Part shown: positions 1 to 61,391 of the stretch, piece by piece
How positions within the stretch are numbered: position 1 is the first letter of the stretch
How the letters are laid out: every line of letters begins with the position of its first letter
Source of the DNA: an uncultured bacterium
GTDB lineage: Bacteria > Patescibacteriota > Saccharimonadia > UBA4664
Assembly: GCA_963720265.1 (NCBI GenBank)
Contig: CAVRET010000002.1
Location: forward strand, 814,069 to 878,068
DNA: 64,000 nucleotides
Direction: 5' to 3'
Position numbers and translations under genes: made by a program
Notes under the pieces: model-generated
Seen by the model: the letters and a program-made list of their open reading frames with translations, nothing else
Databases searched by the model: none
Told to the model about the DNA's origin: nothing

Positions 1-1139
1 TCACGGAAAAAGCCGCTGTCGCCAACACGCGTCTTGGCCTAACGTCCGAGGCATCCGGCCCTGAGCTGTACGACGCGCTCATAAAGCAAGTTGCGGCCCA
101 CGACGCGCACCTGGCCCGCGCCATCGGCGGCACCGAACCCGACAACATCGCCGAAATGATCCCGCTCATCGTGAAGGCCGCTGAATCGGCCCCGTTACCC
201 AAAGACGGTTGGTTCCTCAAAGAGGACAAGGCTAGAGAAATGCTGCGCCGCCAGCCACCGCTCGCCATTATGGACCGCCTTGGTTACCACCTCGTGTCGC
301 GCTTGCTCGAGGCCGAGGACGTAACCGAGCTCATGTTGGCGCTGCGTTTTGTTGAAGCTCCGGATTGGCTCAACAACTTCGACCGCACCTACCTTGATCT
401 CACACCCGCGGATTTCGAAACCCGCACTATCCGCGTGGTGCCGTTTGCGGTCGAAAAATGGGGCGACATTGCCGAACACTTCATCGCCAAGAAGCGCCAC
501 AACATCACGCACTCCAAGGAAATGGGCGCCATCGCGGTTACGCCCATGACCGAAACCCACATGCCCGGCGTTACGCTCAAGGTTATGCCGCTGTTGTTCC
601 ACTATTTCAACGAAATCCGCCTCTACTCCAGCTTTTTCAAGCTTATGCAGACGAAGAAGAATTTCGGCGCCATTGTGTCAGACACCCTCATCGCCGACCC
701 GGCCCACGTCAAACTCACCGATTCGGCCCACATCCACTGGCGTGTCATTCAGCGTTACTTTGGCAAGCTGCCAAACGAACGCCACCCGGAAATCTTCGAA
801 CCGCACGTCCAACCGGAAGACTTACACTGGCGCCGGGCCGAAGAAGTGCTCTACGACATCGATCCTGAGCTCGAATTTTGGCGCGGCCTCGATTATGTTG
901 CTACGCCAAAAGATCCGGCTCACGATACGGTTACGTTCAATCTTATGGACGTCAGTTTAAGCTACTCCAACGGCATTAGTTATGACGATCGCTACCTCTA
1001 TCACTTCCGTGAAGCGCTGTGGAATGAAGTCTTTGCCCGCTACCTGGGTGAGAAGATTCTCGAGCAACAATTGCTCGACAAACTCGACAACGCCGTCATC
1101 AAGCCGGAGACCCTAACGCGCGAGTCCGCCCGTGCCTAA
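1..1139 (+). CDS. hypothetical protein, 5'-truncated at window edge
   Basis: The reading frame is open from nt 3 through the ATG at 156 to the stop at 1139. It overlaps the next gene by 8 nt, suggesting translational coupling. No recognisable motif. Confidence 0.5.
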   Translation, partial: TEKAAVANTRLGLTSEASGPELYDALIKQVAAHDAHLARAIGGTEPDNIAEMIPLIVKAAESAPLPKDGWFLKEDKAREMLRRQPPLAIMDRLGYHLVSRLLEAEDVTELMLALRFVEAPDWLNNFDRTYLDLTPADFETRTIRVVPFAVEKWGDIAEHFIAKKRHNITHSKEMGAIAVTPMTETHMPGVTLKVMPLLFHYFNEIRLYSSFFKLMQTKKNFGAIVSDTLIADPAHVKLTDSAHIHWRVIQRYFGKLPNERHPEIFEPHVQPEDLHWRRAEEVLYDIDPELEFWRGLDYVATPKDPAHDTVTFNLMDVSLSYSNGISYDDRYLYHFREALWNEVFARYLGEKILEQQLLDKLDNAVIKPETLTRESARA

Positions 1140-1722
1140 GGAGCGGCCGCGCTACCAAATCTGCGTGTCCGGCGCGGCCAAAGGTCCCAGCGTGGAGCTC
1201 GCCCACGAGCTGGCCGGCCGGGTCGCCAGAGAGATTGTCCGCCGCGGCCACCTCGTAACTTCCGGTGCCACCCGAGGCCTGCCCTACTATGCCGCGAAAG
1301 CCGCCAAAGCGGAAAACGGATCGCATGTTACATCCATTGGCTTCTCGCCGGCGGCTTCCCGCATTGCACACGTCAAAAAATACCGCCTGCCAATCGACGC
1401 CTTCGACACCATTCTCTACACCGGCTTCGAATACACCGGCCGCAACCTCTTGCTCGTGCGCTCGGCCGACGGTGTCATTATGGTGGGCGGCCGCATCGGC
1501 ACACTCAACGAGCTCACGATCGCCATTGAAGAACGCAAACCAGTCGGTATTTTGCTCGGCTCCGGCGGCATGACCGTTGAGGTCGAGGCGGTGCTCAAAG
1601 CCGCCAAGCGCGCCCGCAACGGCATTATTTTCGGCCACGACCCGGCGCGGCTGGTCGACGATCTCATTGACCTTATCGAGCTCAAAAACCGCAAGCTCCC
1701 CGACCTAACCTCGGAGATCTAG
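1132..1722 (+). CDS. LOG family / TIGR00725-like Rossmann-fold nucleotide-binding protein
   Basis: 196 aa with a GxxxGxM-type N-terminus (VSGAAKGPSVELAHELAGRVAREIVRRGHLVTSGATRG) and VIMVGGRIGTLNELTIAIE, characteristic of the LOG/SLOG fold. Confidence 0.7.
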   Translation: MPKERPRYQICVSGAAKGPSVELAHELAGRVAREIVRRGHLVTSGATRGLPYYAAKAAKAENGSHVTSIGFSPAASRIAHVKKYRLPIDAFDTILYTGFEYTGRNLLLVRSADGVIMVGGRIGTLNELTIAIEERKPVGILLGSGGMTVEVEAVLKAAKRARNGIIFGHDPARLVDDLIDLIELKNRKLPDLTSEI

Positions 1723-3687: not shown

Positions 3688-3733
3688 GAAACATCCTCCT
3701 CTCAATCCACAACCAATCGTCTCATAATCGCAA

Positions 3734-3798
3734 AATAAATGGAGCGGCTTGTTTCCAAACCGCTCCGGGGCCGGGGACCCATTGCTGTCCCCGCGCCC
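3734..3798. repeat. 65-bp direct repeat, copy 1 (two GC-rich hairpins)
   Basis: AATAAATGGAGCGGCTTGTTTCCAAACCGCTCCGGGGCCGGGGACCCATTGCTGTCCCCGCGCCC is identical to 4580-4644. It contains GGAGCGG..CCGCTCC and GGGGAC..GTCCCC stems. On the minus strand the first stem is followed by ATTTATT, which is terminator-like, 3' of gene 3813-4490. Confidence 0.8.
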
Positions 3799-3812
3799 AC
3801 TCCCTCTTCAAT

Positions 3813-4490
3813 TTATCCGACGCCCAGTGCCCATTGGACATCCATTCGCAGCGTATCTGACACGGCCCGCGCAGCCATGGCCGCAGCTCTGCGGAAATAC
3901 GCTTCGCACCGCGCCAGGTCAACATCCTGCGGTATCCGTGCGATCACTTCGGGCGCCAGCTCGACCAGGATTACAATGGCCCCGAATGGCACCAGTGCTC
4001 CGGCCCTCTGGTCGTCGCCCATGATGAGCTTAGCCGCTCCCCTGAACCGGTTGTTCGCCATCGGGCCTCGCGCGAACTCGTCATCCACGGACAGCAACGC
4101 TCTAAGCGGCTTGATCACCGGCTCCCATGCGAGGCATCCGATGTCGCCTGCAACCAGCTCCAGCGTCTGGTCCACCGGCCACGCCGAGATGACGGATGCG
4201 GGAGCGAATGCCAGCAGGTCCCGAACCCATTGTTCGCGAAGCTCGGTCACGGTCGTTGCGGTGGCATCGACGAACGGTGCATACCGACCGCCGTCCGGCT
4301 TGAGATACTTGACGAGCATCTGGCCGCAAATTGAAGCGGCCGACACGAGCGCGAACAGATGTGCGAGGTTGTCGGTATCAAACCCGTACCTTAGCAGCGT
4401 CTCTTCGATCCTGTCCGCGTTGGCGTTGTCAGGGTGCGCTGTTTCATCGAGCGGGCACCGCTCAGAAACGCTGTTCCAGTTTATTTGCAC
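3813..4490 (-). CDS. hypothetical protein
   Basis: 225-aa ORF with protein-like composition, running opposite to a low-complexity + strand ORF. No motif recognised with confidence. Confidence 0.45.
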   Translation of the reverse strand: MQINWNSVSERCPLDETAHPDNANADRIEETLLRYGFDTDNLAHLFALVSAASICGQMLVKYLKPDGGRYAPFVDATATTVTELREQWVRDLLAFAPASVISAWPVDQTLELVAGDIGCLAWEPVIKPLRALLSVDDEFARGPMANNRFRGAAKLIMGDDQRAGALVPFGAIVILVELAPEVIARIPQDVDLARCEAYFRRAAAMAARAVSDTLRMDVQWALGVG

Positions 4491-4543
4491 GCTGTCTCAC
4501 CTCCAGAAATTGTGCGTACAAACTATAATAATGCAACATTAAT

Positions 4544-5494
4544 TTAATTTAAGCAACTAATACCGCCTATATGCCGGCCAATAAATGGAGCGGCTTGTTT
4601 CCAAACCGCTCCGGGGCCGGGGACCCATTGCTGTCCCCGCGCCCGTACGTCTCGCAGGCGAGGCCCTGACGGCCTCAACCGTAACCTGCGCTGGGTCAGT
4701 TCCCTCTGGTAGCCGTACGGGAACTGCGCCCGAAGAGCTCGCGCCACCCGGCTACGCCATCTGGCCACCAGCCTCGGGTCTTCGCCGAGTCCGGCCAGAG
4801 GCGCGAGCGCCGCCGCTTCCGGCCCTTGCACTCCGAGATACCCATAGGCTGCTGTTAGTGCCGCGTCCGGATCCGCCACGAGATCCTCGTACTTCAGGTA
4901 CAACGGCATAATCCCGAACCGCTCGATCCAGGTGATCCAGGCCTGGTGTTGGGTTAGGGCCTTCCAGTACTGCTCCAGGATGAGGGGAAGGTTGAAGGTC
5001 GGGCCCTCACCTGTCGATTGGCCTGGGTTCCAGATTCGGCCCTTTTCCAGGACACCCGATACGGCTTGACCGGGCAGATCAGCTCGCCAGACGTAGATGA
5101 AGCTGACATCGATATCTAGCCCTGGGAAGGCCTGTCGCATGAGCCTGAAATCGGACGGCTCCGGCATTTCGTTCGCGGGTTGGTCCGATGCGATCCATTC
5201 CTGCTCAAACTTCAGCCGCAGCTGCCGCAGGAGGTTCGAAAGGTGTTCGGGATAAAGCGTAGCGGCGAACATGCCGTTCGCGGTCGTACCCTGGTCGAGA
5301 ACATATGCCAGATAGGACGGCCAGTCAGCGATACCGCCGACCTCCGCCGACAGCATTTGCTCCATGACCGGGTCGAAGCACTGCACCCATGCGGTGCCGG
5401 CCACTCCTGAACCGCCCAGCAGCTGAGCGAACTGAGTCGCACCAGACCCCGGCAAGCCGAGGACGAATGCGCTGCGCCTGGTAGGCATCTGCAT
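4544..5494 (-). CDS. Stf0-type sulfotransferase family protein
   Basis: N-terminal P-loop-like PAPS-binding motif (SAFVLGLPGSGATQFAQLL) and overall length resemble the Stf0 sulfotransferase family. Start chosen at the ATG at 5494. The C-terminus reads through the 65-bp repeat, so the true end is uncertain. Confidence 0.55.
   Translation of the reverse strand: MQMPTRRSAFVLGLPGSGATQFAQLLGGSGVAGTAWVQCFDPVMEQMLSAEVGGIADWPSYLAYVLDQGTTANGMFAATLYPEHLSNLLRQLRLKFEQEWIASDQPANEMPEPSDFRLMRQAFPGLDIDVSFIYVWRADLPGQAVSGVLEKGRIWNPGQSTGEGPTFNLPLILEQYWKALTQHQAWITWIERFGIMPLYLKYEDLVADPDAALTAAYGYLGVQGPEAAALAPLAGLGEDPRLVARWRSRVARALRAQFPYGYQRELTQRRLRLRPSGPRLRDVRARGQQWVPGPGAVWKQAAPFIGRHIGGISCLN
4580..4644. repeat. 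65-bp direct repeat, copy 2
   Basis: Exact copy of 3734-3798. It lies within the 3' end of the sulfotransferase-like ORF, and the repeat supplies that ORF's C-terminal ~30 codons. Confidence 0.8.
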
Positions 5495-5559
5495 CACCCT
5501 TTCTAGCAGGATTGTGATTTCGGATATGCGCGCTGCACCCAGCACTTTATCACTGCAAC

Positions 5560-7620
5560 TTGATTATGCCAACTCGCCGCAGTCAAAACTTGACCGAGAG
5601 CCCAGTCAACTGCATCATGAAACGACCACGTTTCAGATGTGGCAGTACCTATTCGCCCGAGTGGAAGGTTGTGGTCGAAATGACCGAAACCGAAGTTGAA
5701 GTGCCGCTTGACGCCCAAAACGTGAGGCTCTTGCACGAAGTCGCGCGCGGCCTCAGTAACCCACAAATTGCAGTGCTGTGGGGTCTGACGACCGGCCAGG
5801 TAAACATCATGCTCAAGCAACTCTACAAGTTGCTCGGTGTCCACGACCTTGGCCAGCAAAGCCGGGCGTATGCGCTCGCAATTGCCGCCAGACGTTATGG
5901 ACTTGAGCCGCCCGAGGAGCTTGAGGCAGCCGTTGCCCTGATGCAAAGCGACGACTTTGAGTTTGGGGAGGCGGATGACCCCGCCATCCTCAAGCTAGTC
6001 GCCGAAGGCAACAACATCACAGAGATCGCTGACCAGCTGAGGATGCGGCCCGCCACGGTTCGGACGAGGCTGGCCGAGATGCGGCTCCGGACCGAGCTCA
6101 GACTCTACCCAGCGTTTTGCGTCGCCGTCGCCGCCATCTGGGCCGGCAAGCTCAGAGGGCTAGAACTGGACCGCGAGTACGTACCGGACGCTGACGACCT
6201 TGCGCTCGTTCTCGACATCATCCTGGAGCGTACCCTGGATGAAACGGCTGCTCGGCTACGCGTCAGCCGCTCCACCGCCAAGTATCATTTCAGGGCGCTG
6301 CTATTCCGCATGGGGCTTGTCTCAGAGGAAGAACTGGTCGACCGGTGCGTGCGCAACGGCTGGTTCAAGATGCCAACCTGGGACGAACGGATTACGGGGG
6401 CCGTAGACGTCCTTTCACTAGACCGTCTCAGTGCTCTCGAGCTGGTTGTTGTAGGGCTCCTCGGCCTCGGCCACGATCGGACGACAATCAAGAAGATCCT
6501 GGCAAAAGAGCTGGGAGATTCCGGGCTAAACGAGCTGCTTGGTCTGGGTATCGTACAAAACATCATTCAGACCAAGCCGGTAGGCGACCTCGTGGCTGAA
6601 ATGCAAGCAGAATACGCCGCAACGAGTGTCGACCAACTGCTTCGCAGGCTCTACGGACGCACCGATATCCATGATGCCGCGGCGCTCATTGCCGTAGTGC
6701 ACTGGGCCGGTGAACCGCTGGCGGAACCAGCCGGGCCGGGACCCGCCTTTACGGCCATCGAGATTAAGCAGCTCGTGGGGCTGGCAAGAGGCCTGACCGG
6801 CGTGGAGATCGCCCATACCCTGGGCATTTCTCCTGATGCCTCCAGCAACCGCCTGGGCGACCTCTACCGCAAACTAGGCGCCTCAAGCGCCCAGCAAGCG
6901 GTAGCCCTTGCGGCAAGGGACGGGCTGCTGGATGCATGGTTCGAAACCATCGACCTGCGCCAGGTGACCGCAAGTATGTTCTCGCCGCTCTACATGCGTC
7001 TGCTGACGCTGATCGCGAATGGCTTCACGAGAAAGAGCGCCACACCTCGCCTCGGAGTATCGTCGCTCCACACACTAGGCCGTTGGGTCGCGAATGACGA
7101 CCAACGCATCGCATCGCTGGGCCTGCCGCCAAACACCGTGATCGCGGTCCTGGTGCGCCGAGACGAAATCGAAGTGACCGGGCCGCCGGTCATTCCGCAG
7201 GCAGCGGCGGCTCCGGGTGAGGCCGTGCGCGTTACCACCGTTGTGGCCCGCGCGGCCCAGTTCGTTGCCGGAAACCGGTTTAACGAGCAGGTAATGACAG
7301 GGGAAGCGGCGCTATCCAAGCCTCTGGCCGATCAGCTCAGAGGCAACTTCGCTGAGTGCGTGGAAGCCATCCGGGACCGAACCCTGCCAAGGCCCTGGTG
7401 GCATAGCCGCTACAACCTGAGCGAAACGGTAGTTGACGTCACGCTATTCCTGCAGGCGCTCGCAAACGGCCAGCCGTTGCCCGACTACAGATTGGAGCAC
7501 ACCGAATACATCGAGCAAGAGTTCATCTGGTGGTACGAAGCAGACGTGTGCGCCCCGCTGGGAGCATCTGGGCCACGTCAAGCTGTATGTATCGCTTTGT
7601 GGCTCGGGCTGATCGAGTGA
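5560..7620 (+). CDS. multi-domain LuxR/GerE-family HTH transcriptional regulator (about six tandem HTH_LuxR domains)
   Basis: LuxR-type HTH signatures recur at intervals of about 100 aa: LSNPQIAVLWGLTTGQVNIMLKQL, NNITEIADQLRMRPATVRTRL, LDETAARLRVSRSTAKYHFRAL, RTTIKKILAKELG, LTGVEIAHTLGISPDASSNRLGDLYRKLG, FTRKSATPRLGVSSLHTLGRW. The start is ambiguous (5560, or the ATG near 5680 with a GGAAGG RBS). Confidence 0.65.
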   Translation: MIMPTRRSQNLTESPVNCIMKRPRFRCGSTYSPEWKVVVEMTETEVEVPLDAQNVRLLHEVARGLSNPQIAVLWGLTTGQVNIMLKQLYKLLGVHDLGQQSRAYALAIAARRYGLEPPEELEAAVALMQSDDFEFGEADDPAILKLVAEGNNITEIADQLRMRPATVRTRLAEMRLRTELRLYPAFCVAVAAIWAGKLRGLELDREYVPDADDLALVLDIILERTLDETAARLRVSRSTAKYHFRALLFRMGLVSEEELVDRCVRNGWFKMPTWDERITGAVDVLSLDRLSALELVVVGLLGLGHDRTTIKKILAKELGDSGLNELLGLGIVQNIIQTKPVGDLVAEMQAEYAATSVDQLLRRLYGRTDIHDAAALIAVVHWAGEPLAEPAGPGPAFTAIEIKQLVGLARGLTGVEIAHTLGISPDASSNRLGDLYRKLGASSAQQAVALAARDGLLDAWFETIDLRQVTASMFSPLYMRLLTLIANGFTRKSATPRLGVSSLHTLGRWVANDDQRIASLGLPPNTVIAVLVRRDEIEVTGPPVIPQAAAAPGEAVRVTTVVARAAQFVAGNRFNEQVMTGEAALSKPLADQLRGNFAECVEAIRDRTLPRPWWHSRYNLSETVVDVTLFLQALANGQPLPDYRLEHTEYIEQEFIWWYEADVCAPLGASGPRQAVCIALWLGLIE

Positions 7621-7623
7621 GTG

Positions 7624-7660
7624 GTCGGGGCTGGGGTCATTACGCACCCAGCCCCGACAC
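7624..7660 (+). terminator. intrinsic-terminator-like hairpin after LuxR-multi gene
   Basis: GTCGGGGCTGGG(gtcattacgca)CCCAGCCCCGAC, a 12-bp perfect stem immediately after the stop at 7620. Confidence 0.55.
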
Positions 7661-7881
7661 CACGCAACCTTTGACTAAATCATCACGTGCAAGTTGGCGC
7701 CCGAAAATACGTCACGAGTTCCTGTAGCCGCAGCCGCACCAAGCAATAACTCCATTTATCGCATTGGCAGTCGCTGCACACCGGTGTTATTTCATATCCA
7801 TTAGTGACACCCGGTTGCTCCAGCCGGTACGATTTGCTTATATAACAAACAGGTATTTCGAGGTGAGTATGAAAGGACACG

Positions 7882-10500
7882 ATGCTCACCTCAGATCGCA
7901 CAATGTCCGTTCTGACCGATGTATTGCCCGCATCGCGGGCAGTCGCGTGCCTCGTACTTATAACGGGCGTCTGCACGGTACTGGCTTTAGGCATTCGACG
8001 CATAATCGACTGGATAGTCCAGCTGCGCACCAAAAGAGCATTCCTCGAGGTGCGTCCCTCTGCCGCAACCGACAAGCTGCCGGTCGCAACCAATCAGCTC
8101 TTTAAGGTCGTGCACGGGGCAAACGCTGCCCGGCCCTGGTACCGCAGACTATTCACAAGAGTAACGGTTTCGCTTGAGATCGTATCATCCAAAACCGAAG
8201 GCATTCGTTTCTACATTGGTGCGCCGGTTAGTCAGATGGACATGATACGGCACCATCTCATTGCCTACGTTCCGGAATCAAGGACCGAACTGGTCCGGGC
8301 GCCGGGGCTTAATCTAAAGGGATCCCACGTCAGGGCGGTTGAATTTCGCCAATCCGGTCATTTCGCTTTGCCGTTAGCCCGTAACGACGCGCTTGACGAT
8401 ACCGACCCGGCCGGCTACCTCACCGGGGCTATGACGGGGCTTGGAGACGGTGAGCTTCTGGCCGTCCAACTCATCGCTTCCCCCGTCAAAAGCAAAGCGG
8501 CGGCGGCCATTGCCAGGCGCCTGCTGAGAAACGAAGACGTAGTCGCTGGTCTCACGTCAGGCAAAGGCGCACCGGTAAGGGGAAGTAGTGCACTGGCCAA
8601 ACTGATCGCATCCATCCTGTCACTGCCTGCGGATATCATCTGGGGCCATACGATGCAAAATACCGGAAGCGAACGGCAGCTGACCGGTCATCTGCTCATG
8701 GCGCAAAACCATTTGAAGCCCGAAAGAACGCTGAGTGCTAAAGAAGAGCAGCTGACAAGGGCCATCCACTACAAGGTGACGCAAAGCGTCTTCAGGACGG
8801 ACCTGCGGGCAATCGCCGTATCTCAAAACCGCGCCGGCACCAGGCGCCGCCTGAACGGGATCAAAGCCGTACTCGCTTCATACGGGGATTCGTCGTACCA
8901 GTCGCTTGCCGCAAGGCCGAAGCTCACGGGATCACTTGGGGGCCGTTACCTCATGTCAAAGGTCACGCGCAGGCTGCCAAGTTTCAGGCCAGGGCGGGCA
9001 AATTTGTTTGCCGCATCAGAACTTGCCGGGCTCTTTCATTTCCCGAATTCTACCTCGGCAAAAACCGAAAACGTTATGAAATCCCTAAGCCGGACCCTGC
9101 CGGCGCCCGTCTCTCTCAAACAGTCTATTCCGAATGCCGGCATCACTGTCGGGCGTAATATCTACCACGGCGCCGAAACTGATATTGTCTTAACCCGCAG
9201 GGATCGCGAACGCCATTGTTACATCATCGGCGGGACCGGAAACGGCAAAACCACGCTGCTTGAGAGTTGCATGATCCAGGATGCAAACCTCGGTAACGGA
9301 TTTGCCTTCATCGACCCGCATGGTGACGCCGCCCAAAACCTGTTGCGCCATATCCCAAGCGCGCGTATTGAGGAGGTAGTTTACCTGAATCCGGACGACT
9401 TAAGTTACCCTATCGGGCTCAACCTCCTCGAGCTGCGTGAAGGTCTGGCGGGGGATGAACTGCTGCGCGAAAAGGATCTTATTACTGAAGCCACCGTCTC
9501 AGTCTTTCGTAAGATCTTCTCAGACCAAGACGAAGGCGGCCACCGGATTGAATACGTGCTTAGGAACACTATCCAGACAGCGCTTACCCAAGACGGCGCC
9601 ACCTTATTCACGGTTTTTGACCTTTTAAACGACCCCGTCTACCGCAAGCGCGTCGTATCAACGCTTGGCGACAAGGACTTAAAGAACTTCTGGCAGCAGG
9701 AGCTGGGCAAGGCCGGCAACTTCCAAAGGGTTAAGATGGCCGCCGGCATCACAGCTAAAATCGGCCGCTTCCTGTTCTCGGCATCAGCCAAACGCATGCT
9801 GGAGCAGCCAAGGTCTACCATTAATTTCGATGACATCATAAATTCCGGAAAAATCTTAATCTGCAACGTTTCAAAAGGATTGCTCGGAGAAGATACGGCC
9901 GAACTATTCGGCATCACGATTCTCGCTAAATTGCAGCTGGCCGCCTTAAGAAGGGCCCGGATGGCGCGCGGCAACCGTCGTCCCTTCTACCTCTATGTCG
10001 ACGAGTTCCAAAACTTCGCCACTACCTCGTTCGTGCAAATGCTCTCAGAAGCAAGAAAGTACGAGGTGCTCATGACGCTCGCCCAGCAGTCCACCGCCCA
10101 GCAACCCGACCAGCGCTTAATCAATGTAGTTCTGGCCAACGTCGGCACGCTCATCGCTTTCCGCACCGCCAGCCCCGCTGACGAACGCCTCCTGCTGCCG
10201 TTCTTTGCGCCCTTTATCGAGTCCGGGGAGATCGGCAACCTGCCGTCGTTTAACTTCTACATGCGCATGACAGGTGTTACTGCCCAGGAGCCCTTCTCCG
10301 GCAAGACGGTCCTGCCGGCAAGCGATGGCAGCGACATTACCGCCGCGGCCATTATCGAATACTCAAGAGCCCACTACGCCAAGAGGTTCGAACCGCCGGC
10401 CGCACCCACGGCAAAAAACGCTGCTACGGCCGCAAATTCGCTGGATAAGAAACCCGGCTTTACCCGGCCAAAATCGCACCTGGAAAGTGGCACCTCATGA
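7882..10500 (+). CDS. membrane-anchored FtsK/TraD/VirD4-like P-loop ATPase (putative conjugative DNA-transfer/coupling protein)
   Basis: N-terminal TM helix, then Walker A (IIGGTGNGKTTLLES) followed by IDPHGD, then Walker B (LYVDEFQNF) and LAQQS. This is the architecture of T4SS coupling or TraG/TraD-like ATPases. Confidence 0.55.
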   Translation: MLTSDRTMSVLTDVLPASRAVACLVLITGVCTVLALGIRRIIDWIVQLRTKRAFLEVRPSAATDKLPVATNQLFKVVHGANAARPWYRRLFTRVTVSLEIVSSKTEGIRFYIGAPVSQMDMIRHHLIAYVPESRTELVRAPGLNLKGSHVRAVEFRQSGHFALPLARNDALDDTDPAGYLTGAMTGLGDGELLAVQLIASPVKSKAAAAIARRLLRNEDVVAGLTSGKGAPVRGSSALAKLIASILSLPADIIWGHTMQNTGSERQLTGHLLMAQNHLKPERTLSAKEEQLTRAIHYKVTQSVFRTDLRAIAVSQNRAGTRRRLNGIKAVLASYGDSSYQSLAARPKLTGSLGGRYLMSKVTRRLPSFRPGRANLFAASELAGLFHFPNSTSAKTENVMKSLSRTLPAPVSLKQSIPNAGITVGRNIYHGAETDIVLTRRDRERHCYIIGGTGNGKTTLLESCMIQDANLGNGFAFIDPHGDAAQNLLRHIPSARIEEVVYLNPDDLSYPIGLNLLELREGLAGDELLREKDLITEATVSVFRKIFSDQDEGGHRIEYVLRNTIQTALTQDGATLFTVFDLLNDPVYRKRVVSTLGDKDLKNFWQQELGKAGNFQRVKMAAGITAKIGRFLFSASAKRMLEQPRSTINFDDIINSGKILICNVSKGLLGEDTAELFGITILAKLQLAALRRARMARGNRRPFYLYVDEFQNFATTSFVQMLSEARKYEVLMTLAQQSTAQQPDQRLINVVLANVGTLIAFRTASPADERLLLPFFAPFIESGEIGNLPSFNFYMRMTGVTAQEPFSGKTVLPASDGSDITAAAIIEYSRAHYAKRFEPPAAPTAKNAATAANSLDKKPGFTRPKSHLESGTS

Positions 10501-10597: not shown

Positions 10598-11389
10598 ATG
10601 ACGAACGCACATCAATCACTAACGAAACAACAAAGCGCAATCCTTACGCTTATAGCAAGATTTAGGTTTATCACAACCAGGCATGTCCAAAAGAAATTGA
10701 AAATCAAATACGTGTCAAACGTTCAGCCGAGACTTAACTGGCTCATAGGACGCGGACTTATCGGTCGTAAGTATGAATCCGAGTTTAAGCTTGCCGGCCG
10801 GCCGGCTGCATATTTCCTCATGCCAAAAGGAATGCGAGCACTCCGTGAGCTTAGGCCCGAAATCGACCGTGCTGCCCTCCACGCCGCCTATAAAGATGTC
10901 GACGCCAGTGACGACTTCATCCGCCGCTGTCTCATGGTAGCGGATACGCACCTGGCACTCTCAACGCGCTTTGGCGGTCAGTTTGAATTTTTTACCAAAA
11001 GTGAATCAAGACCATACGACTACTTCCCGCAGCCCCTTCCGGATGCCTACATCCGCATCCCGGACGAAACAAGATCTGACGACAATCCCGTCCATTTCTT
11101 TCTCGAAGTTTGCCAAACGTCGCGGCCGCCTTTTGCGCTCAGATCACAGCTTAAACGCTATGTCTCGTTTGCCGAAGACGGCCTCTGGCCCGAAACTACC
11201 GGTACGAGGCTGCCGCCGGTCCTCCTGCTTTGTGACACCGATGAACTGGCCAAGAAATTAAAGCGTACGGTCAATGCACTGCTCGAAGACACCTTTGAAG
11301 ACGACCTCGAATTCAAGGTGCTCACCATGTTGGATTTCGCAGCTTGGAACGACAAAATCTTCTTCCCAAAACCAGCCAAAAGTGTCTAA
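10598..11389 (+). CDS. replication-relaxation family protein (plasmid/ICE-associated)
   Basis: N-terminal winged-helix motif LTKQQSAILTLIARFRFITTRHVQKKL matches the replication-relaxation family, and the protein is the expected length. It sits next to the TraD-like ATPase. Confidence 0.65.
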   Translation: MTNAHQSLTKQQSAILTLIARFRFITTRHVQKKLKIKYVSNVQPRLNWLIGRGLIGRKYESEFKLAGRPAAYFLMPKGMRALRELRPEIDRAALHAAYKDVDASDDFIRRCLMVADTHLALSTRFGGQFEFFTKSESRPYDYFPQPLPDAYIRIPDETRSDDNPVHFFLEVCQTSRPPFALRSQLKRYVSFAEDGLWPETTGTRLPPVLLLCDTDELAKKLKRTVNALLEDTFEDDLEFKVLTMLDFAAWNDKIFFPKPAKSV

Positions 11390-12853: not shown

Positions 12854-14030
12854 CAGCTAAGCTGAACCACCCCACACTCCACTCCAGACGATTTGTCCCG
12901 AGGCCTGCTGCAGTTGCTCGTAGGCCTGGCGGAGCCAGGACGTTTGCTTCTTGGGGTTGGCGCTTGTCACGGTTTGTTTAGTGGGCTTCGTTTCCAGATA
13001 AAGTAGTGCAATGCCAAGGCTGACCAGCCACAAGATGAGCTTTAGGTTATGCGGCTTGGTTAACCTGGTGCGTTTGTACTCAAAGATGTGTTTAATGTCC
13101 CGAAAGGTCTCTTCAATCTCGAATCGGTGGTAGTAAATTCGGATAATCTTAGTTCGACTGCTTCTGAAATCGTTAGTGAGTATGTACCAGGACTCTTTGG
13201 CACGCCGGCTTTTGGGCGAGCGGATAACCCGGAGAGTCAGTCCATATATCTGGACCGTGGTATCCCGGTCTACTAAGGAACTAACCTCGGTCACCTCGCC
13301 GTCACATTCAACATATCGCCCTGCCTTGAGGCGGACATAGAAGGTAGCGTTTGCTGCTGCTAGATGCGTCACAATGGACCGGTTGCCAAAACCGCGGTCA
13401 AAGACCAGTCGGGGCCAGAAGCCGAGCCGGTCAGCCATGGCTTGGAGGCTAGTGACGGTATGCTCGGTAAAAGACTGCTGCCGGCGGGCCGCTTGCATGG
13501 CAGCTCTGAGTTTCTTCCAGTGCGGAGCGGCATTCTCGTGGGCAGGAATATGGTGAGCGTAAGTGGTCTCAACCATACAAGGGAGGGATCTGCCCTTCCG
13601 GGTTTGTACGGCACCTACCAAGGCTGTGAGCCCATGCATGTCCGAGTGATCTACATTTACATAGCTGCGTGGTTTGACGAGCGCCAGCTGGTCAAAAACC
13701 TCTCCGAGCTGGTCGGTAAAGGCGGTGTTTTGGAACATGCGCTCTGCCTTACGCAGACCGGTGTGGGGGTTGGCAACCACCATGCGGGCATTGCCGCTGG
13801 CGCTCTGGAAAGCTCTAAGTCCGTATGCCTGCAGGCCAAACGACAGCTGCGTCCGCCAACGGCTCGGCACACTGGGCATTAATTGCTTTTGTATACGAGT
13901 ACGGATACCCCGTACAATATTGGGTGACGACATATTTGTTTTCCTGTTTGTTTTGAAGTGGACAGAAAACAGTGTGTCGTCTTTTTAGTTGCAGCTCAAG
14001 GAAGTGTGGGGTGGTTCAGCCAGCTAAGCT
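12854..14030. mobile_element. IS4-family insertion sequence with terminal inverted repeats and direct-repeat target duplication
   Basis: An 18-bp inverted repeat, GCTGAACCACCCCACACT (12861-12878), and its reverse complement (14003-14020) flank a single transposase gene. The flanking direct repeat is CAGCTAA(GCT): 12854-12863 on the left, 14021-14030 on the right. Confidence 0.8.
12857..13933 (-). CDS. IS4-family DDE transposase
   Basis: 358 aa with VFDRGFGN and a C-terminal YYHRFEIEETFRDIKH, the IS4/IS5-superfamily Y-x2-R-x3-E-x6-K signature. Confidence 0.85.
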   Translation of the reverse strand: MSSPNIVRGIRTRIQKQLMPSVPSRWRTQLSFGLQAYGLRAFQSASGNARMVVANPHTGLRKAERMFQNTAFTDQLGEVFDQLALVKPRSYVNVDHSDMHGLTALVGAVQTRKGRSLPCMVETTYAHHIPAHENAAPHWKKLRAAMQAARRQQSFTEHTVTSLQAMADRLGFWPRLVFDRGFGNRSIVTHLAAANATFYVRLKAGRYVECDGEVTEVSSLVDRDTTVQIYGLTLRVIRSPKSRRAKESWYILTNDFRSSRTKIIRIYYHRFEIEETFRDIKHIFEYKRTRLTKPHNLKLILWLVSLGIALLYLETKPTKQTVTSANPKKQTSWLRQAYEQLQQASGQIVWSGVWGGSA

Positions 14031-22494: not shown

Positions 22495-23210
22495 GCCAGC
22501 GACCATATACCACGCTCTTTCTTCTTCAATCACTTGACGGTAAGATATCCACCGGCGACGTTGACGAACGGGATATTGATGCCGACTTCCCCAAGTTACC
22601 AGGTATCAAAGAAGGCTTACACCATTATTACGAAATAGAAGGCGAAACCGATCCATTCTCACTTGTGACCGGCCGGTCAATGGCCAAGATCGGCGCAAAT
22701 ACCAAATCCTTCGATAATATAGACCCAATCCCCATAACCTCCATTGTCATAGACAATAAGCCTCACTTAACTGCGCATGGCGTCCAATTTCTGGCACATA
22801 AATTCGAAGATCTCATCGTCGTAACGACCGACAATGCTCATCCTGCTCACGATTTGAGCAACAAACGCTCCAATGTCGTCGTGCTGCAATACGACAACGC
22901 TATAGATTTTATTGACCTGTTCGCAAAGCTTAAGACTGAGTATGAAGCCAAGCGAGTGACCATCCAATCGGGTGGTGAGTTGAATGCTATCCTTCTTCGT
23001 GCGGGCCTCATTGATGAAATATTGCTCGTTATTGCGCCTTGTCTCATTGGCGGACGTAGCACGTCGACATTGGTAGACGGAGAATCGCTACGAACCGTAG
23101 AAGATCTCGCAAAGATCAGATCACTGAAGCTTAAAGCCTGTAAGCCACTGGATGATTCGTATCTGCGTGTGGAGTATGAAGTATTGAATGAAGAACGAAG
23201 TAACGTATGA
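22491..23210 (+). CDS. dihydrofolate reductase family protein (RibD C-terminal-like)
   Basis: MSQRPYTTLFLLQSLDGKIS...IQSGGELNAILLRAGLIDEILLVIAPCLIGG matches the RibD_C/DHFR-like family. ATG at 22491 with a GAGGGAGG RBS, overlapping the upstream stop by 4 nt (ATGA). Confidence 0.7.
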   Translation: MSQRPYTTLFLLQSLDGKISTGDVDERDIDADFPKLPGIKEGLHHYYEIEGETDPFSLVTGRSMAKIGANTKSFDNIDPIPITSIVIDNKPHLTAHGVQFLAHKFEDLIVVTTDNAHPAHDLSNKRSNVVVLQYDNAIDFIDLFAKLKTEYEAKRVTIQSGGELNAILLRAGLIDEILLVIAPCLIGGRSTSTLVDGESLRTVEDLAKIRSLKLKACKPLDDSYLRVEYEVLNEERSNV

Positions 23211-24580
23211 GGACCATCTCAACCAACCCTTCCCGAAATTACGAAACCATCGGCGAAGTTGAGACCTCCACCGAGCAAGAAATCAAAGACGCCGTCACGA
23301 GAGCACGGGCAGCTCAACCTGCCTGGGCGGCGCTCGCACAAGCCGAACGCAATGCCGCCATCGAATCCTTCGTCGAAGCCTGCAGCCAACACGCCGAAGA
23401 ACTTGCCCGCCTGATGAGCCAAGAAATGGGCAAGCCCATCACTCAGGCCCGCGCACAGATTGACGAGAGTGCCGCTCATTTCCACGCCCACATAGACATC
23501 GTCGAAAAAGCCCTCACCCCGGAAATAGTTTTTGAAAACAACACCGAGCGCCACCACCTCACTCGCGAACCACTCGGCGTGGTCGCTTGCATCGGTCCAT
23601 GGAACTTTCCTTTACTCAATATCCCGTGGCAAGCCGGTCAGGCACTGCTCGCCGGCAATACCGTAGTATTCAAGCAATCTGAAGAGATTATCCTGTTTTC
23701 GGCACTAGTAGCTAAGATTTCGGCTAAATCAAAACTGCCTGAAGGCGTATTTACCATGGTCTTCGGCGACGGCTCGGTTGGCGAAATACTCGTTGCTCAG
23801 CCGGTTGATGCCATTGCTTTCACCGGCAGCACCCACACCGGTCAACGCATCACTGAACTGGCCGCCAAACGCTCTACTAAAGTGCTGACCGAAATGGGCG
23901 GCTCAGCTCCGGGCATCGTGTTTGAAGATGCCGACGTACCAGCCATTATCGATACGCTCTACGCAGTGCGTTTTGACAACACTGGACAGTTTTGCGACGG
24001 CCTAAAACGCCTCATTGTTCACGAAAGCAAACTCGATGAAGTCCTCGCCGAGCTTAAAAAAGTTAACGACAAGCACAAGGTGGGCGACGCACTGGATGAA
24101 ACAACCAATCTCGGACCACTAGTGGCTGAGCGTCAGCTCAACTTGCTTCAAGCGCAAATGCAAGACGCTATCGACAAAGGCGCGCAGATAGTCTTTGGCG
24201 GGAAGCAGCCCGATGGCCTTACGGGCGCCTACTATGAGCCAACCGTCCTCACGAATATCACTTTTGATATGCGTGTTTGGCGGGAAGAAATCTTTGGGCC
24301 GGTACTGCCGGTGGTTACTTTTAAGACCGAAGAAGAATCCATACGGCTCGCCAACGACACGATATATGGCCTCGGGGCTTATGTTTACACCACTGACAAA
24401 GAGCGTTATTTCCGCGTAGCGCGGCAGCTACAAAGCGGCATAGTCGCACATAACAATGCACTATATTTCAGTCCCGTGACACCATTTGGAGGCTATAAAG
24501 CTTCAGGCAATAGTCGTTCACTCGGTATCGAGGGATTCCATGAAATGACTCAAATTAAGATTGTGAGTGAGGAGAAATAG
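23207..24580 (+). CDS. NAD(P)-dependent aldehyde dehydrogenase
   Basis: GPWNFPL, the catalytic Glu context EMGGSAP, and the catalytic Cys context GQFCDGLKR. 457 aa. ATGA overlap with the upstream gene. Confidence 0.9.
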   Translation: MRTISTNPSRNYETIGEVETSTEQEIKDAVTRARAAQPAWAALAQAERNAAIESFVEACSQHAEELARLMSQEMGKPITQARAQIDESAAHFHAHIDIVEKALTPEIVFENNTERHHLTREPLGVVACIGPWNFPLLNIPWQAGQALLAGNTVVFKQSEEIILFSALVAKISAKSKLPEGVFTMVFGDGSVGEILVAQPVDAIAFTGSTHTGQRITELAAKRSTKVLTEMGGSAPGIVFEDADVPAIIDTLYAVRFDNTGQFCDGLKRLIVHESKLDEVLAELKKVNDKHKVGDALDETTNLGPLVAERQLNLLQAQMQDAIDKGAQIVFGGKQPDGLTGAYYEPTVLTNITFDMRVWREEIFGPVLPVVTFKTEEESIRLANDTIYGLGAYVYTTDKERYFRVARQLQSGIVAHNNALYFSPVTPFGGYKASGNSRSLGIEGFHEMTQIKIVSEEK

Positions 24581-51960: not shown

Positions 51961-53373
51961 GTGCTTATCTTTATTCAAGATAAGAGCGGATCGTGGATTA
52001 CTGCAGCCTCAGGGCGTTCGTGCTCAGCAACTTGCGTTGTTCGCTTGACAATCTCCGGCCACAAGCTCGGAGACCTGCTCAGGGACCGCTACTACCTGGG
52101 TTACGTCGAGTATGACGGAATCGAGTACGCGGGCAGGCATGAGGCGCTCATCAGCCCAGAGCTGTTTGAGCGCGTCCAGAAGGTGCTGGACTCCCACTCG
52201 GGCACGGGTACGCGGACGCGGACGCATAACCACTACCTCAAGGGCGTGCTCTGGTGCGCTCGGTGTGAGCACCGCTTCATCGTGCAGCGGGCCCGCGGCA
52301 ACGGTGGCGAGTACTTCTACTTCTTCTGCCGGGGACGACAAGAGGGGCTGTGCGATGCACCGTACGTCAACGTCCATGCGGTAGAGCAAGCCGTAATCGA
52401 CCACTACGCCGCGGTCACACTCTCAGACGAGTTCAAGGAGGCTGTACGGGCAAGGCTCGATGGCGCGCTTGCCCATGATCTAGGGAGCACTCAAGCAGTC
52501 CGTGACCGGCTGGAGGCCCGGCTTGCCGCACTCGACACCAAGGAAGACAACCTGCTTGACCTGGCCGCGGACGGCGAGCTACCGAAGGAGAAGATCAGGG
52601 AGAAGCTGCGTACGATCCGAGACGAGCGTGCCAGCATTCGGCGCGATATCGAACGGCTCGACGCTGAGCTTGAGACTGGCCGTGCCGTGTTCGGGCTCGC
52701 GCTCTACCTGCTCGACGAACCGCAGGAGCTGTACCGGCAGGCCGGGCCAGCCCTGCGGAAGGCGATGAACCAAGCGATCTTTACCAGGCTCAAGCTAGAC
52801 GGCCGTGCAGTTACAGCTGATGAACTGGCTGAGCCGTTCGACGTGATCGTGCCTGCTGGTCGGGCCTACGACCGACGCACCTACCAACGTAAAAGACCAC
52901 CCGCACCGTTGAGCGGAGTGGTCTTCCACGAAGGCATCTTGGCCTATGATCTAACCTCGGCTGATCTGCTAGAACTTGGCCTAGGGGGCATTGGTTCTAG
53001 TAAGTCCGCCATGGTGGTCTTAACGATTGCTCTTCAGAACATTTCGGCCACTCAGAGGATCACTGAATTATACGATGCAGTCAAGAATTGTAAATCCCGG
53101 TCCCAGAATAAGACTCGACGAGTGCCGGCGCTTCAGCTCTCCCCTGCCCGCCGAGGACTTGATATTGATCGGCTGGCTACCGACTACCGGGCCGGCTGGA
53201 CGTTGCAACAGCTGGCCGACAAGAACGGCATCCATAAGGATACGGTAACACTGCAACTCAAGAAGGCGGGAGTCAATATTCGGCCAAGAGGAAGCAATAT
53301 GCGCGGAAAGTTAAGTTATTTTATTCCGCCGCGTAACTCCTCGGGCCGTTTTACCAGTACTACCAGTTGTTAG
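51961..53373 (+). pseudogene. large serine recombinase lacking the N-terminal catalytic domain, fused in frame to a copy of the small HTH gene
   Basis: Starts inside the recombinase domain (RDRYYLGYVEYDGIEYAGRHEALISPELF). Zinc ribbon CARCEHRF...YFFCRGRQEGLC and a coiled-coil region follow. From about 53011 (CCATGGTGG, a motif variant) the frame continues into ...RRVPALQLSPARRGLDIDRLATDYRAGWTLQQLADKNGIHKDTVTLQLKKAGVNIRPRG. Confidence 0.5.
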
Positions 53374-60062: not shown

Positions 60063-61391
60063 TCACAAGACCTCAATGTCGTCGTCGTGGTTGTCGGCGT
60101 CTTTCTGTAATGACACATTGCTGGTTGTACCAAAGGTCTTGTCGAGCAGTTCGTTTATGGACGTTTCTGGATTCTGACGCGCGACGCTGAGAATTTGAAG
60201 ATATTCCCTAATGACTGTTCGTGGCGTCAGGAATTCGGCCGCGCCAGGACGGTTTAGCTGGCCTTCCATGTATTTGGTGATATTTTCGCTGTTACACGGA
60301 ATGCTTACGCTATAGTGCTGTTCAAAAATTGTCTTAAGTTTACTCAACAGGGTAAAAATATCTTCTTGGGATAGCGGCCTGAGATAGACTACAGGTTGGG
60401 ATAGGTCTACATATTGGTTATCATCAAACTTTCCGAATGAGAGTCTTCCTTTAAGTGCTTCGTAACTGAAGAGCCCGCGACGTTCATCCTCCAGGAACCT
60501 CCGCGTACCACCGAAGTTAACAAACATATTCTTGGCTCGGCCCTGAAGGCAGTCATTATATATGCTCATGATCCGTTCATAATTCTTATCGCGAGTCTGA
60601 CTCTGAGCGATTTTGTACAAGTTGATCGCTTCATCTAAGTTGATCACGAAGCCCTGATAACCGACGGCTATGAACAGTTCGGCGAGGTTTTTTAGCATGT
60701 CATAGTAATTGCTATCGGTAATGATTTCGCGAACACCAATCTCGCGGAGGGAATCAGTCTTGGCCGTATACTGCCCTTTAAGCCAACGAAGTGCACTTTC
60801 TTGCAGTTCGACGCTTCCAATTGCATAGCCCTCAAAGTACTTCGCAATGGCCTGGCCAAATTCGAAACCGCCTGGAGCGCTGAACTTTCGCGTGGTTTCG
60901 ATTATTTTGTCGACAACAAGTTTACGGTTGTCCTTAACCAGAGAATCAAAATCAACCTGAGCGGCTTCAATCACTTCGTTCATCAAGGATTCGATCCATT
61001 GATCAAGAATGCTACTTAAGGCGTTGCCGTCCTGATTTGTCTGCGTAACTAAGTTGCTAACTATTTCGGAGTATAGTGCTCGGGCCTTACCGTCACTTGC
61101 ATACAATCTGTTGACTGGCGTGAAGTCAACCTTGGACACAACAAAATTGGTCTTTAGGGCCAGCGACTCGATGAGCTGCAACATAAAACTTTTACCGCTT
61201 CCAAAGTCACCTATCCAGAATCGAACTTCGCTGTTGCCCTTTGCAACGTTCTCTAGTGAGCTAATGATGGCATCTGTTTCTTTGCCGCGACCCACCAGCA
61301 TATGCTGGATGCCGGTACTTGGCACGACGCCACCTTGCAGGGCGTTAATAATACTTGAAGATTCTTTTGCCTTTAACCCTACAAGTTCCAT
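60063..61391 (-). CDS. P-loop ATPase (SngB-like / DUF2791-type)
   Basis: Walker A WIGDFGSGKSFML, Walker B-like VINLDEA. 442 aa. Stop is adjacent to the helicase start, and it overlaps the upstream gene by 1 nt. Confidence 0.65.
   Translation of the reverse strand: MELVGLKAKESSSIINALQGGVVPSTGIQHMLVGRGKETDAIISSLENVAKGNSEVRFWIGDFGSGKSFMLQLIESLALKTNFVVSKVDFTPVNRLYASDGKARALYSEIVSNLVTQTNQDGNALSSILDQWIESLMNEVIEAAQVDFDSLVKDNRKLVVDKIIETTRKFSAPGGFEFGQAIAKYFEGYAIGSVELQESALRWLKGQYTAKTDSLREIGVREIITDSNYYDMLKNLAELFIAVGYQGFVINLDEAINLYKIAQSQTRDKNYERIMSIYNDCLQGRAKNMFVNFGGTRRFLEDERRGLFSYEALKGRLSFGKFDDNQYVDLSQPVVYLRPLSQEDIFTLLSKLKTIFEQHYSVSIPCNSENITKYMEGQLNRPGAAEFLTPRTVIREYLQILSVARQNPETSINELLDKTFGTTSNVSLQKDADNHDDDIEVL

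Follow-up and report, generated by a model that had tools for sequence, protein, structure and literature searches.

A sensor-less protein with seven concatenated LuxR/GerE-type helix-turn-helix units from an uncultured bacterium

The window analysed here, a stretch of 64,000 nucleotides from an uncultured bacterium, carries on its forward strand a maximal open reading frame of 686 aa with a TTG start (5560..7620), found at exactly the coordinates given in a preliminary description of this DNA. The multi-GerE coding sequence within it most likely starts at ATG 5680 rather than at TTG 5560, yielding a protein of 646 aa (5680..7620, + strand), termed P0001. This start is the choice of the gene callers; in addition, an exact 646-aa database entry (100% identity) begins at the same ATG, and the homologues all align from it. 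The 5′ extension of the maximal frame contains a sigma-70-like promoter match (TTGACC-17-CATCAT; 5590..5618, +), recognized by consensus only, and a Shine-Dalgarno-like motif, GGAAGG, can be read from the sequence 11 nt 5′ of the ATG (5663..5668, +). A perfect 12-bp inverted repeat, GTCGGGGCTGGG N11 CCCAGCCCCGAC (7624..7658, +), begins 4 nt past the stop codon; it has no T-run and is probably a transcript-end hairpin. With a promoter-like site on its 5′ side and a hairpin past its stop, the gene has the appearance of a stand-alone unit.

The gene is divergent from that of an Stf0-like sulfotransferase (4544..5545, −; Pfam PF09037, 34 bits, cutoff 22) and lies upstream of a conjugation-like module, both as first described. 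The first gene of this module encodes an 872-aa VirD4/TraD-like coupling ATPase (7882..10500, +), which has sub-threshold TraD/TrwB/TraG-D_C matches and shares 31% identity with Embleya and Streptomyces plasmid T4SS coupling proteins; it is followed by the gene for a Replic_Relax (replication-relaxation) protein (10598..11389, +; Pfam PF13814, 44.6 bits, cutoff 25.3). The gap between the multi-GerE gene and the ATPase gene measures 261 nt (7621-7881) and includes the perfect hairpin. The gene sits in a high-GC island, at least 22 kb long, in which a DDE transposase is found as well. Apart from the post-stop hairpin, a search for operator-like DNA repeats in 5300-8000 gave nothing beyond short matches in two copies, at the level of chance, and a search for tandem repeats in 1-24000 gave no repeat array or candidate operator, again only short two-copy matches at chance level.

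Counting the units by HMM scan, as the preliminary description had proposed, gives a mixed answer. The whole protein matches Pfam GerE (PF00196) with 63.6 bits (E 1.3e-17, cutoff 23.5), with four stretches passing, and the remaining whole-protein Pfam matches are HTH families without exception, among them Sigma70_r4_2 (29.8 bits, cutoff 25.7). When the units are scanned singly, D5 alone is above the cutoff (27.3 bits, aa 393-465 in that scan), D1, D2, and D3 stay below it (19.8, 19.0, and 13.6 bits); a further four segments show no GerE match at all. By itself, the single-sequence Pfam scan nearly refuted the claim of multiple GerE units. Self-BLAST of the protein likewise returned no internal HSP or repeat, the repeats having diverged beyond the reach of pairwise comparison.

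The units were counted by profile–profile comparison (hhalign) of family profiles, built from 4–6 homologues, with a GerE reference profile that was itself recruited using the D5 HMM. The repeats D1–D6 and D8 matched with GerE probabilities of 94–99.8%, whereas reversed or column-shuffled controls reached at most 10% and mostly less than 2%. By these profiles, the repeats are identified as true GerE homologues and not as chance helical similarity. P0001 contains seven GerE-type units, six in tandem and one at the C-terminus. The initial proposal of multiple tandem GerE units in one chain is therefore borne out, with ‘about six’ corrected to seven, and the suggested recurrence about every 100 residues is close to the observed spacing of ~65–100 residues. 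No sensor, receiver or other signal-input domain was found in P0001 with Pfam and NCBIfam, which match no non-HTH family, in agreement with the first reading; the NCBIfam equivalog matches are restricted to the HTH part, with scores far under their cutoffs.

From the N-terminus, P0001 starts with six units in tandem; a disordered linker comes next, then a helical cap (D7), and the diverged seventh unit (D8) closes the chain. D1 (5704..5907, +; aa 9-76; hhalign 99.0%) is a GerE-like four-helix HTH with AF2 helices spanning residues 12-73. D2 (5968..6150, +; aa 97-157; hhalign 97.4%) and D3 (6181..6363, +; aa 168-228; hhalign 98.8%; AF2 helices 171-225) are GerE-like HTH units whose recognition helices share the pattern T-[VA]-[KR]-x-[HR] with NarL and GerE. 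In the alignment register, the helix of D2, T-V-R-T-R, retains the canonical basic pattern, and that of D3, T-A-K-Y-H-F-R, is the nearest to NarL and GerE. D4 (6424..6714, +; aa 249-345; hhalign 96.3%) is a degenerate GerE-like unit with an insertion of ~31 aa (~nt 6514-6606; pLDDT 60-74) between HTH helices 2 and 3, present in the window copy only, as judged from the family alignment. D5 (6742..6930, +; aa 355-417; hhalign 99.8%) is the best-preserved GerE domain, and D6 (6973..7167, +; aa 432-496; hhalign 94.9%) is a GerE-like HTH that is basic in all family members, with a net charge of +2 to +7.

The disordered linker (7168..7284, +; aa 497-535; hhalign 0.4%) is poorly conserved, with a mean identity of 23% and pLDDT below 50 at aa 505-530. 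D7 (7285..7419, +; hhalign 4.0%) is a family-specific helical cap that is not GerE-like; it ends in a conserved LPRPWW.SRY loop, in which P572 is invariant, and packs on D8 in a compact C-terminal model (pTM 0.86, pLDDT 90.3). D8 (7420..7617, +; aa 581-646; hhalign 94.4%), the diverged C-terminal GerE-like unit, has an aromatic recognition helix, and the recognition helices of D4, D5, and D8 are without canonical basic residues. D2 and D5 are acidic in all members (net charge of D5, −3 to −9), and P0001 is acidic overall (pI 5.2, net charge −18). We note that the acidity of the protein, the D4 insertion inside the HTH, and the lack of a nearby operator array were counted against a DNA-reading model.

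The full-length AF2 model (pLDDT 79.2, pTM 0.41) consists of repeated four-helix units, and with the C-terminal model such units are seen at the same seven positions; individual structural matches cover the best unit and D8. The inter-domain arrangement is without confident prediction at a pTM of 0.41, and any pairing of units into pseudo-dimers is thus conjecture. The top Foldseek matches are exclusively LuxR/GerE/NarL-type DNA-binding domains, including the DNA complexes 1je8 and 4wul: GerE (1fse), NarL (1je8), LiaR (4wul), and DosR (1zlj) superimpose over ~60 residues with TMt of 0.74-0.84 and rmsd of 1.1-1.6 Å, and D5 is presumably the part of the model that gives rise to these matches. 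The matches of D8 (LiaR and QscR) are all LuxR-type DNA-binding domains as well, at ~2.8 Å over 65 residues. How many units there are, where they lie, and how they fold is established, and a signal-input domain is absent.

The family numbers about five members: of 1.84 billion representatives, 5 proteins reach E≤1e-30. Four independent metagenomic homologues have the full architecture in common, and an artefactual gene fusion was rejected on this ground; P0004, P0005, and P0006 align end to end with P0001. The 365-aa P0003 was considered as a natural short form and rejected; its frame runs on upstream through an in-frame stop, which marks it, on sequence grounds, as a broken or mis-assembled full-length copy. 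A positional orthologue of every unit is found in each full-length homologue. The unit-by-unit score matrix is strongly diagonal (171, 165, 97, and 98 on the diagonal versus 16-64 off it), and each unit is nearer to its positional counterpart in the homologues than to its sibling units, which indicates that the array is ancient and that every position is specialised. Searches for homologues by word index, whether from the single sequence or from the family alignment, recovered nothing but the query and P0002, an ordinary LAL-type regulator; the scan of species-representative genome contigs with P0001 found no relative, the source genome thus being absent from these representatives, and that of metagenome contigs with a further alignment no match. 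An earlier description of a tandem or multiple LuxR/GerE/HTH architecture was not found in the literature searched, and the seven-unit array is rare as a family and apparently unstudied.

Each unit has the same four-helix fold as the LuxR/GerE/NarL HTH (PF00196) of B. subtilis GerE, the NarL C-terminal domain, LiaR, DosR, and VraR. Known members of this family carry one HTH, which in most cases follows a receiver, autoinducer-binding or ATPase domain on its C-terminal side and in others, such as GerE, stands alone, and they act as homodimers. In contrast, P0001 fuses seven specialised units, several of them degenerate, without an input domain. The layout of the classical LuxR regulators (NarL/FixJ, autoinducer-binding, and LAL/MalT), an N-terminal REC, autoinducer or AAA-STAND input followed by a single C-terminal HTH, is not that of P0001. 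In the sigma-70 family, regions 2-4 form successive helical/HTH domains, of which region 4 is a structural relative of GerE. Like P0001, sigma-70 proteins have several HTH-type domains in one chain, those of sigma-70 contacting separate DNA elements, but P0001 is without region 2 or 3 and all its units are of the region-4/GerE type.

The uniqueness that the preliminary description implied for a tandem GerE array was overstated, as 29 of 151 retrieved proteins carry arrays of at least three units (range 3-14), including giants with 9-14. Mid-sized examples are P0102 (549 aa, seven units), P0037 (584 aa, seven), P0011 (609 aa, six), P0048 (840 aa, seven), and P0039 (523 aa, five). Like P0001, these are sensor-less proteins of similar size that consist almost entirely of tandem GerE (5-7 units, period ~75-80 aa). 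However, their similarity to P0001 is generic to GerE (E 1e-11 to 1e-4), and they have neither the D7–D8 module nor positional orthology, which makes them families separate from that of P0001; no characterised member was found among them in the literature searched. Long tandem GerE arrays are also shared with giant proteins, i.e., P0007 (2,854 aa, 14 units), P0018 (4,775 aa, 13), P0008 (1,273 aa, eight), P0092, P0015, and P0017. The giants have WXG100-like N-termini, a papain-fold glutamine-deamidase toxin, SecA-like or HATPase_c_2 domains, and ESX-type neighbourhoods, none of which is seen in P0001. Secretion, toxin or enzymatic domains stand beside the HTH array in P0008, P0015, P0018, P0092, and P0017, whereas P0001 begins directly with D1. 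The giants are conceptually near the polyvalent/polymorphic-toxin proteins of conjugative elements (PMC5512222), a paper in which LuxR/GerE arrays are not described. The residence of GerE arrays in such secreted, toxin-like giants is a context that does not suggest classical operator binding, and it was weighed against the DNA-binding reading.

We read P0001, with about even confidence, as a cytoplasmic, sensor-less, multi-site DNA-binding regulator of seven concatenated LuxR/GerE units. Canonical LuxR-type domains bind as homodimers to inverted repeats of ~18-20 bp. In P0001, covalent linkage would take the place of dimerisation, adjacent units may form pseudo-dimers, and the protein would recognise one extended composite site or link several sites together. 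A long composite operator, or a scaffold, had already been suggested in the preliminary description; the idea is plausible, but neither a candidate operator nor a repeat array turned up nearby. The DNA contacts would come from those units whose recognition helices are canonical and basic (D2, D3, the basic D6, and partly D1), while the degenerate D4, D5, and D8, together with D7, could act as spacers or protein-contact surfaces. Since there is no sensor domain, we propose that activity is set by expression level or by partners. The recognition helices give a potential for DNA binding, in which the canonical residues of D2 and D3 and the basic D6 have to be set against the degenerate D4, D5, and D8 and the pI of 5.2.

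The acidic pI and the degenerate recognition helices of some units leave a protein-scaffold role open, in which the array would serve as an interaction scaffold or decoy, the degenerate units binding RNA polymerase (at the beta-flap), anti-sigma-like partners or other regulators, and titrating or tethering them. LuxR-type HTH and sigma-70 region 4 have a common fold, and the above-cutoff Sigma70_r4_2 match is consistent with such a role, as is the anti-sigma-like HATPase_c_2 domain that, along with secretion and toxin domains, adjoins the GerE arrays of the giant relatives. The unit best conserved as GerE, D5, is negatively charged throughout the family, and the non-canonical helices of D4, D5, and D8, the last of them aromatic, point the same way. 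However, basic, canonical recognition-helix features persist family-wide in D2, D3, and D6, LuxR-type domains bound to DNA give the best structural matches, and no partner gene is conserved alongside, and we consider a scaffold somewhat unlikely.

Position alone might suggest that the protein is dedicated to transcriptional control of the conjugation-like module beside it, given that the gene lies directly upstream of, and on the same strand as, the coupling-ATPase and Replic_Relax genes within the same island, and that an unrelated poly-GerE protein, P0008, has a VirD4-like gene ~5 kb off. A regulator of a conjugative element should be linked to it in homologues or occur on plasmids or ICEs, but conjugation genes are missing from all four homologue loci (L002, L006, L007, and L060), and tblastn of P0001 against 72,556 plasmids found no relative. 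The homologues instead adjoin housekeeping genes, either rpoB, tig, clpP, and ftsH or rplC and rplD, and the multi-GerE gene itself is the sole gene that the four loci share with the window. Together with the hairpin and the 261 nt before the downstream gene, these observations make such a regulator quite improbable; a functional tie to the module is not supported, and the multi-GerE gene is cargo of the high-GC island. A nucleoid-associated or chromosome-organising protein, whose multiple HTH units would coat or bridge DNA with low specificity and offset the small transcription-factor repertoire of a reduced genome, would suit the core-genome, housekeeping contexts of the homologues, the numerous DNA-binding-type units without a sensor, and a host that is probably a small-genome Saccharimonadia bacterium, but is highly improbable for an acidic protein that is too rare for a core nucleoid component and whose position-specific unit conservation favours specific over generic contacts.

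LuxR/GerE domains are among the commonest bacterial DNA-binding modules, and the textbook view of them is one of single, homodimerising domains. A conserved, sensor-less chain of seven specialised copies raises the question of whether bacterial HTH domains, chained together as eukaryotic zinc fingers are, can read long sites or bridge DNA. Within the multi-site regulator proposed above, the most far-reaching version, which we hold to be unlikely, is a modular DNA-reading array whose seven specialised units, each held at its own position from a time before the family diverged, would each read a distinct half-site, making up a composite operator of at least 60 bp or bridging several loci. In that case P0001 would found, as its first characterised member, a widespread, unstudied class of poly-GerE proteins, secreted giants of up to 14 units among them, and it would be to prokaryotes what zinc-finger or Myb arrays are to eukaryotes. 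Tandem arrays of 3-14 GerE units recur in many uncharacterised proteins, some with secretion- or toxin-type domains, and the mechanism of a compact, soluble example of 646 aa could explain this larger class. If the Saccharimonadia host holds, P0001 would also be a case in which an episymbiont with a reduced genome has acquired an unusual regulator.

The preliminary description placed the multi-GerE gene in an open reading frame at 5560–7620 (+), and this frame is present exactly, with a TTG start and 686 residues. Public gene calls place the start at ATG 5680, giving 646 residues and an identical database entry (P0001, whose numbering is used here), and all homologues in the family alignment (A1) align from this start. 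A sigma-70-like promoter match (5590–5618) and a GGAAGG motif (5663–5668) lie 5′ of this ATG. On these grounds the coding sequence is taken as 5680–7620 (+), and the first 40 codons of the longer frame are probably untranslated. The gene has a GC content of 61.3%, and no nucleotide-level repeat was found within it.

The whole protein matches GerE in Pfam with 63.6 bits (E = 1.3e-17, cutoff 23.5), with four stretches passing. All 24 of the 24 Pfam families listed are HTH or marginal DUF matches, and receiver, autoinducer-binding and ATPase domains are absent from the scan, in agreement with the earlier view that the protein has no receiver or sensor. The NCBIfam matches are likewise confined to the HTH portions, at scores far under their cutoffs. 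With the protein divided into eight pieces, each scanned against Pfam alone as a single sequence, only residues 393–465 (numbering of the 686-residue frame) exceed the cutoff, at 27.3 bits; three pieces are sub-threshold (19.8, 19.0, and 13.6 bits), four have no match, and self-BLAST finds no internal repeat in the protein. The single sequence thus yields one solid and three marginal GerE units, close to the one or two significant hits at which the preliminary description would have ascribed the others to chance similarity.

Family profiles and structure prediction give a larger number. The family alignment was cut into segments, and hhalign was used to compare each with a reference profile for GerE, made of 167 HTH regions from small LuxR-type proteins (≤330 aa) among the retrieved matches. 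This profile was recruited with an HMM of D5, the unit that passes Pfam by itself, and is independent of D1–D4, D6, and D8, not of D5. AlphaFold2 run on the same alignment (mean pLDDT 79.2, pTM 0.41) places recurring four-helix units at seven positions: D1 (hhalign 99.0%; residues 12–73), D2 (97.4%; 100–154), D3 (98.8%; 171–225), D4 (96.3%; 252–342), D5 (99.8%; 359–413), D6 (94.9%; 436–493), and D8 (94.4%; 585–641). The linker after D6 and segment D7 give 0.4% and 4.0%, and controls with columns reversed, or shuffled ten times per segment, give at most 10% and typically less than 2%. The family therefore very probably consists of conserved, sensor-less proteins of seven LuxR/GerE-type units; the proposed multiplicity holds, and the count of "about six" was slightly too low.

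The top Foldseek matches of the full-length model in the PDB are exclusively LuxR-type DNA-binding domains, namely GerE (1fse, 6jqs), NarL–DNA (1je8), LiaR–DNA (4wul, 4wu4), VraR, DegU, and DosR, with target-normalised TM-scores of 0.74–0.84 and rmsd of 1.1–1.6 Å over 55–61 columns. The poor E-values of these matches reflect the scoring of 60 residues inside a 646-residue query. Residues 505–530 are modelled as disordered. The C-terminal 123 residues, modelled separately (pLDDT 90.3, pTM 0.86), match LuxR-type domains only, at about 2.8 Å over 65 residues (TMt 0.70 for LiaR). These results make D8 a diverged member of the GerE fold and D7 a helical cap, specific to the family, that packs against it. 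A conserved loop, LPRPWW.SRY, lies between D7 and D8, and the three invariant residues of the family (Pro572, Leu591, and Trp641) all fall within the D7–D8 module.

A word-index homology search with P0001 returned nothing besides the query. HMMER, run exhaustively against 1.84 billion representatives, returned 10 proteins at E ≤ 1e-10, 5 of them at E ≤ 1e-30. The full-length homologues P0004 (626 aa), P0005 (601 aa), and P0006 (664 aa) align end to end, and are the relatives that the preliminary description had proposed to seek; P0010 is a 100-residue fragment, and P0003 a relative of the C-terminal half (50% identity). At the locus of P0003, the closest relative (L060:2–400), an in-frame stop lies between D3 and D4 (...GWLRIPND*RIILAVD...), and the annotated protein (365 aa) is the downstream part only. 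A natural short form is ruled out, as the homologous frame runs on upstream past the stop; either the gene is split or a pseudogene, or the stop is a sequencing error. Unit-by-unit BLOSUM62 scores are strongly diagonal: against P0004, D1 scores 171, D2 165, D5 97, and D8 98, with off-diagonal scores of 16–50, and the best inter-unit score inside P0001 is 60. The units are thus nearer to their positional counterparts in other proteins than to their siblings; the array is older than the family, and every position has retained an identity of its own. Conservation per unit is 27–39%, against 23% in the linker. An insertion of about 31 residues between helices 2 and 3 of D4 occurs in the window copy alone.

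The units were placed in register with the reference sequences of NarL and GerE. In this register the basic recognition-helix pattern is kept in D3 (T-A-K-Y-H-F-R) and D2 (T-V-R-T-R), partly kept in D1 and D6, and absent in D4 (S-V-D-Q-L-L-R), D5 (A-S-S-N-R), and D8 (aromatic W-Y). D6 is basic, and D2 and D5 are acidic, in every family member. We put forward, with belief and doubt about equal, that P0001 is a putative multi-site DNA-binding regulator, in which covalently joined adjacent units would substitute for the usual LuxR-type homodimer. DNA would most likely be read by D2, D3, and D6, with the degenerate units serving as putative spacers or as surfaces for protein contact. Those degenerate recognition helices, together with the acidic character of the protein (pI 5.2, net charge −18), speak for the main rival, a putative protein scaffold or sigma-region-4-like decoy, which we consider rather unlikely.

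As first described, the gene is divergent from a sulfotransferase gene (4544–5545 (−); Stf0-like, 34 bits, cutoff 22) and upstream of a conjugation-like module, in which a VirD4/TraD-like ATPase gene is followed by a Replic_Relax gene. The ATPase (872 aa) has sub-threshold family matches and 31% identity to Embleya/Streptomyces plasmid coupling proteins; the 261-nt gap before its gene contains a perfect 12-bp hairpin (7624–7658). This arrangement would suit a dedicated regulator of the adjoining conjugation genes, which comparative context makes improbable. P0004 is flanked by tig-clpP on one side and an APH/ftsH region on the other, and rpoB is close by; P0005 has rplC, rplD, and a RarA-like gene in its vicinity; P0006 adjoins a response-regulator gene; and P0003 adjoins two genes that lack a recorded Pfam match, read from their sequences as a putative secreted protein and a membrane protein. 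By tblastx only the multi-GerE gene is common to these loci and the window, and no relative of P0001 was found on 72,556 plasmids; the conjugation link is thus local to the window and does not extend to the family. A nucleoid-associated protein is very improbable given the rarity of the family.

The GC content falls sharply near 22 kb, from 58.5% (1–22000) to 50.7% (22001–64000), which, with the 61.3% of the gene, places the gene in a compositionally foreign island. This high-GC part, whose left edge falls outside the window, was probably acquired horizontally; besides the multi-GerE gene it contains the coupling-ATPase-like and Replic_Relax genes and a DDE transposase (12857–13933). The homologue loci have a similar GC content (53–58%), which fits acquisition from a higher-GC lineage where the multi-GerE gene is chromosomal. 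The high-GC part is also rich in ORFs with no Pfam match, and at its left end encodes a SLOG cluster-4 (LDcluster4) protein (1132–1722 (+), 96 bits), of a family often tied to nucleotide-signalling or conflict systems. Near-identical peptide stretches are shared by the (+) ORFs 3739–4542 and 4585–4911 (MERLVSKPLRGRGPIAVPAP) and by the (−) ORF 3722–3925 and the 3′ end of 4544–5545 (−) (ARGQQWVPGPGAVWKQAAPFI). Both pairs flank 3813–4490, which suggests a DNA repeat of about 60–100 bp on both sides of a 225-aa ORF adjoining the sulfotransferase gene.

Arrays of tandem GerE units clearly recur as an architecture. Counted with a local HMM, at least three GerE units occur in 29 of 151 retrieved proteins, a set biased towards multi-domain proteins, since these profit from summed scores. 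Mid-sized all-GerE proteins include P0102 (549 aa, seven units), P0037 (584 aa, seven), P0011 (609 aa, six), P0048 (840 aa, seven), and P0039 (523 aa, five). Giants of 1,100–6,600 aa with 6–14 tandem units were also seen (P0007, P0008, P0009, P0015, P0017, P0018, P0058, P0092, P0098, and P0107; loci L058 and L059 belong with them), among them P0007 (2,854 aa, 14 units, GerE 620 bits), P0018 (4,775 aa, 13 units), and P0092, P0098, and P0009 (10 units each). Unlike the window protein, giants carry WXG100-like N-termini (P0008, P0015, and P0018), a papain-fold glutamine-deamidase toxin domain (P0092), SecA-like domains (P0017) or HATPase_c_2 (P0007), and have only generic GerE similarity in common with it. 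P0008 lies in an ESX/WXG100 neighbourhood, beside WXG100, YbaB, and VirD4-like genes. No earlier account of poly-GerE proteins was found in the literature searched, a paper on the polyvalent proteins found in conjugative elements leaves them unmentioned (PMC5512222), and HTH arrays within giants of secretion or toxin type seem not to have been described.

Elsewhere in the window, a conserved aldehyde dehydrogenase (23207–24580) has its best match, at 73% identity, in a Candidatus Saccharimonadia MAG (L008; next best 38%), with which the window is partially syntenic. This one gene, taken with the synteny and the 1.1-Mb source contig, tentatively points to a Saccharimonadia (Patescibacteria) host. 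A defence-type-looking cluster of three adjacent genes (57897–63592 (−)) encodes a TM2 + TerB-C protein (61391–63592 (−)), a BrxC/BrxD-family ATPase (60063–61391 (−), 440 bits), and a DEAD/ResIII helicase (57897–60062 (−)). A 470-aa protein (51961–53373 (+)) resembles a large serine recombinase by its recombinase zinc beta-ribbon domain; its gene lies within a second, moderately high-GC stretch (50–54 kb, ~56–58% GC) and may mark a further mobile element.

In sum, LuxR-type HTH domains of a known kind are here in an unusual, conserved seven-unit arrangement, in a family that is tiny yet part of a broader, apparently unstudied poly-GerE class. If the host is indeed a reduced-genome CPR bacterium, a 22-kb foreign island with a seven-HTH regulator would be unusual cargo, and the multi-GerE protein renders concatenated bacterial HTH readers a directly testable question.
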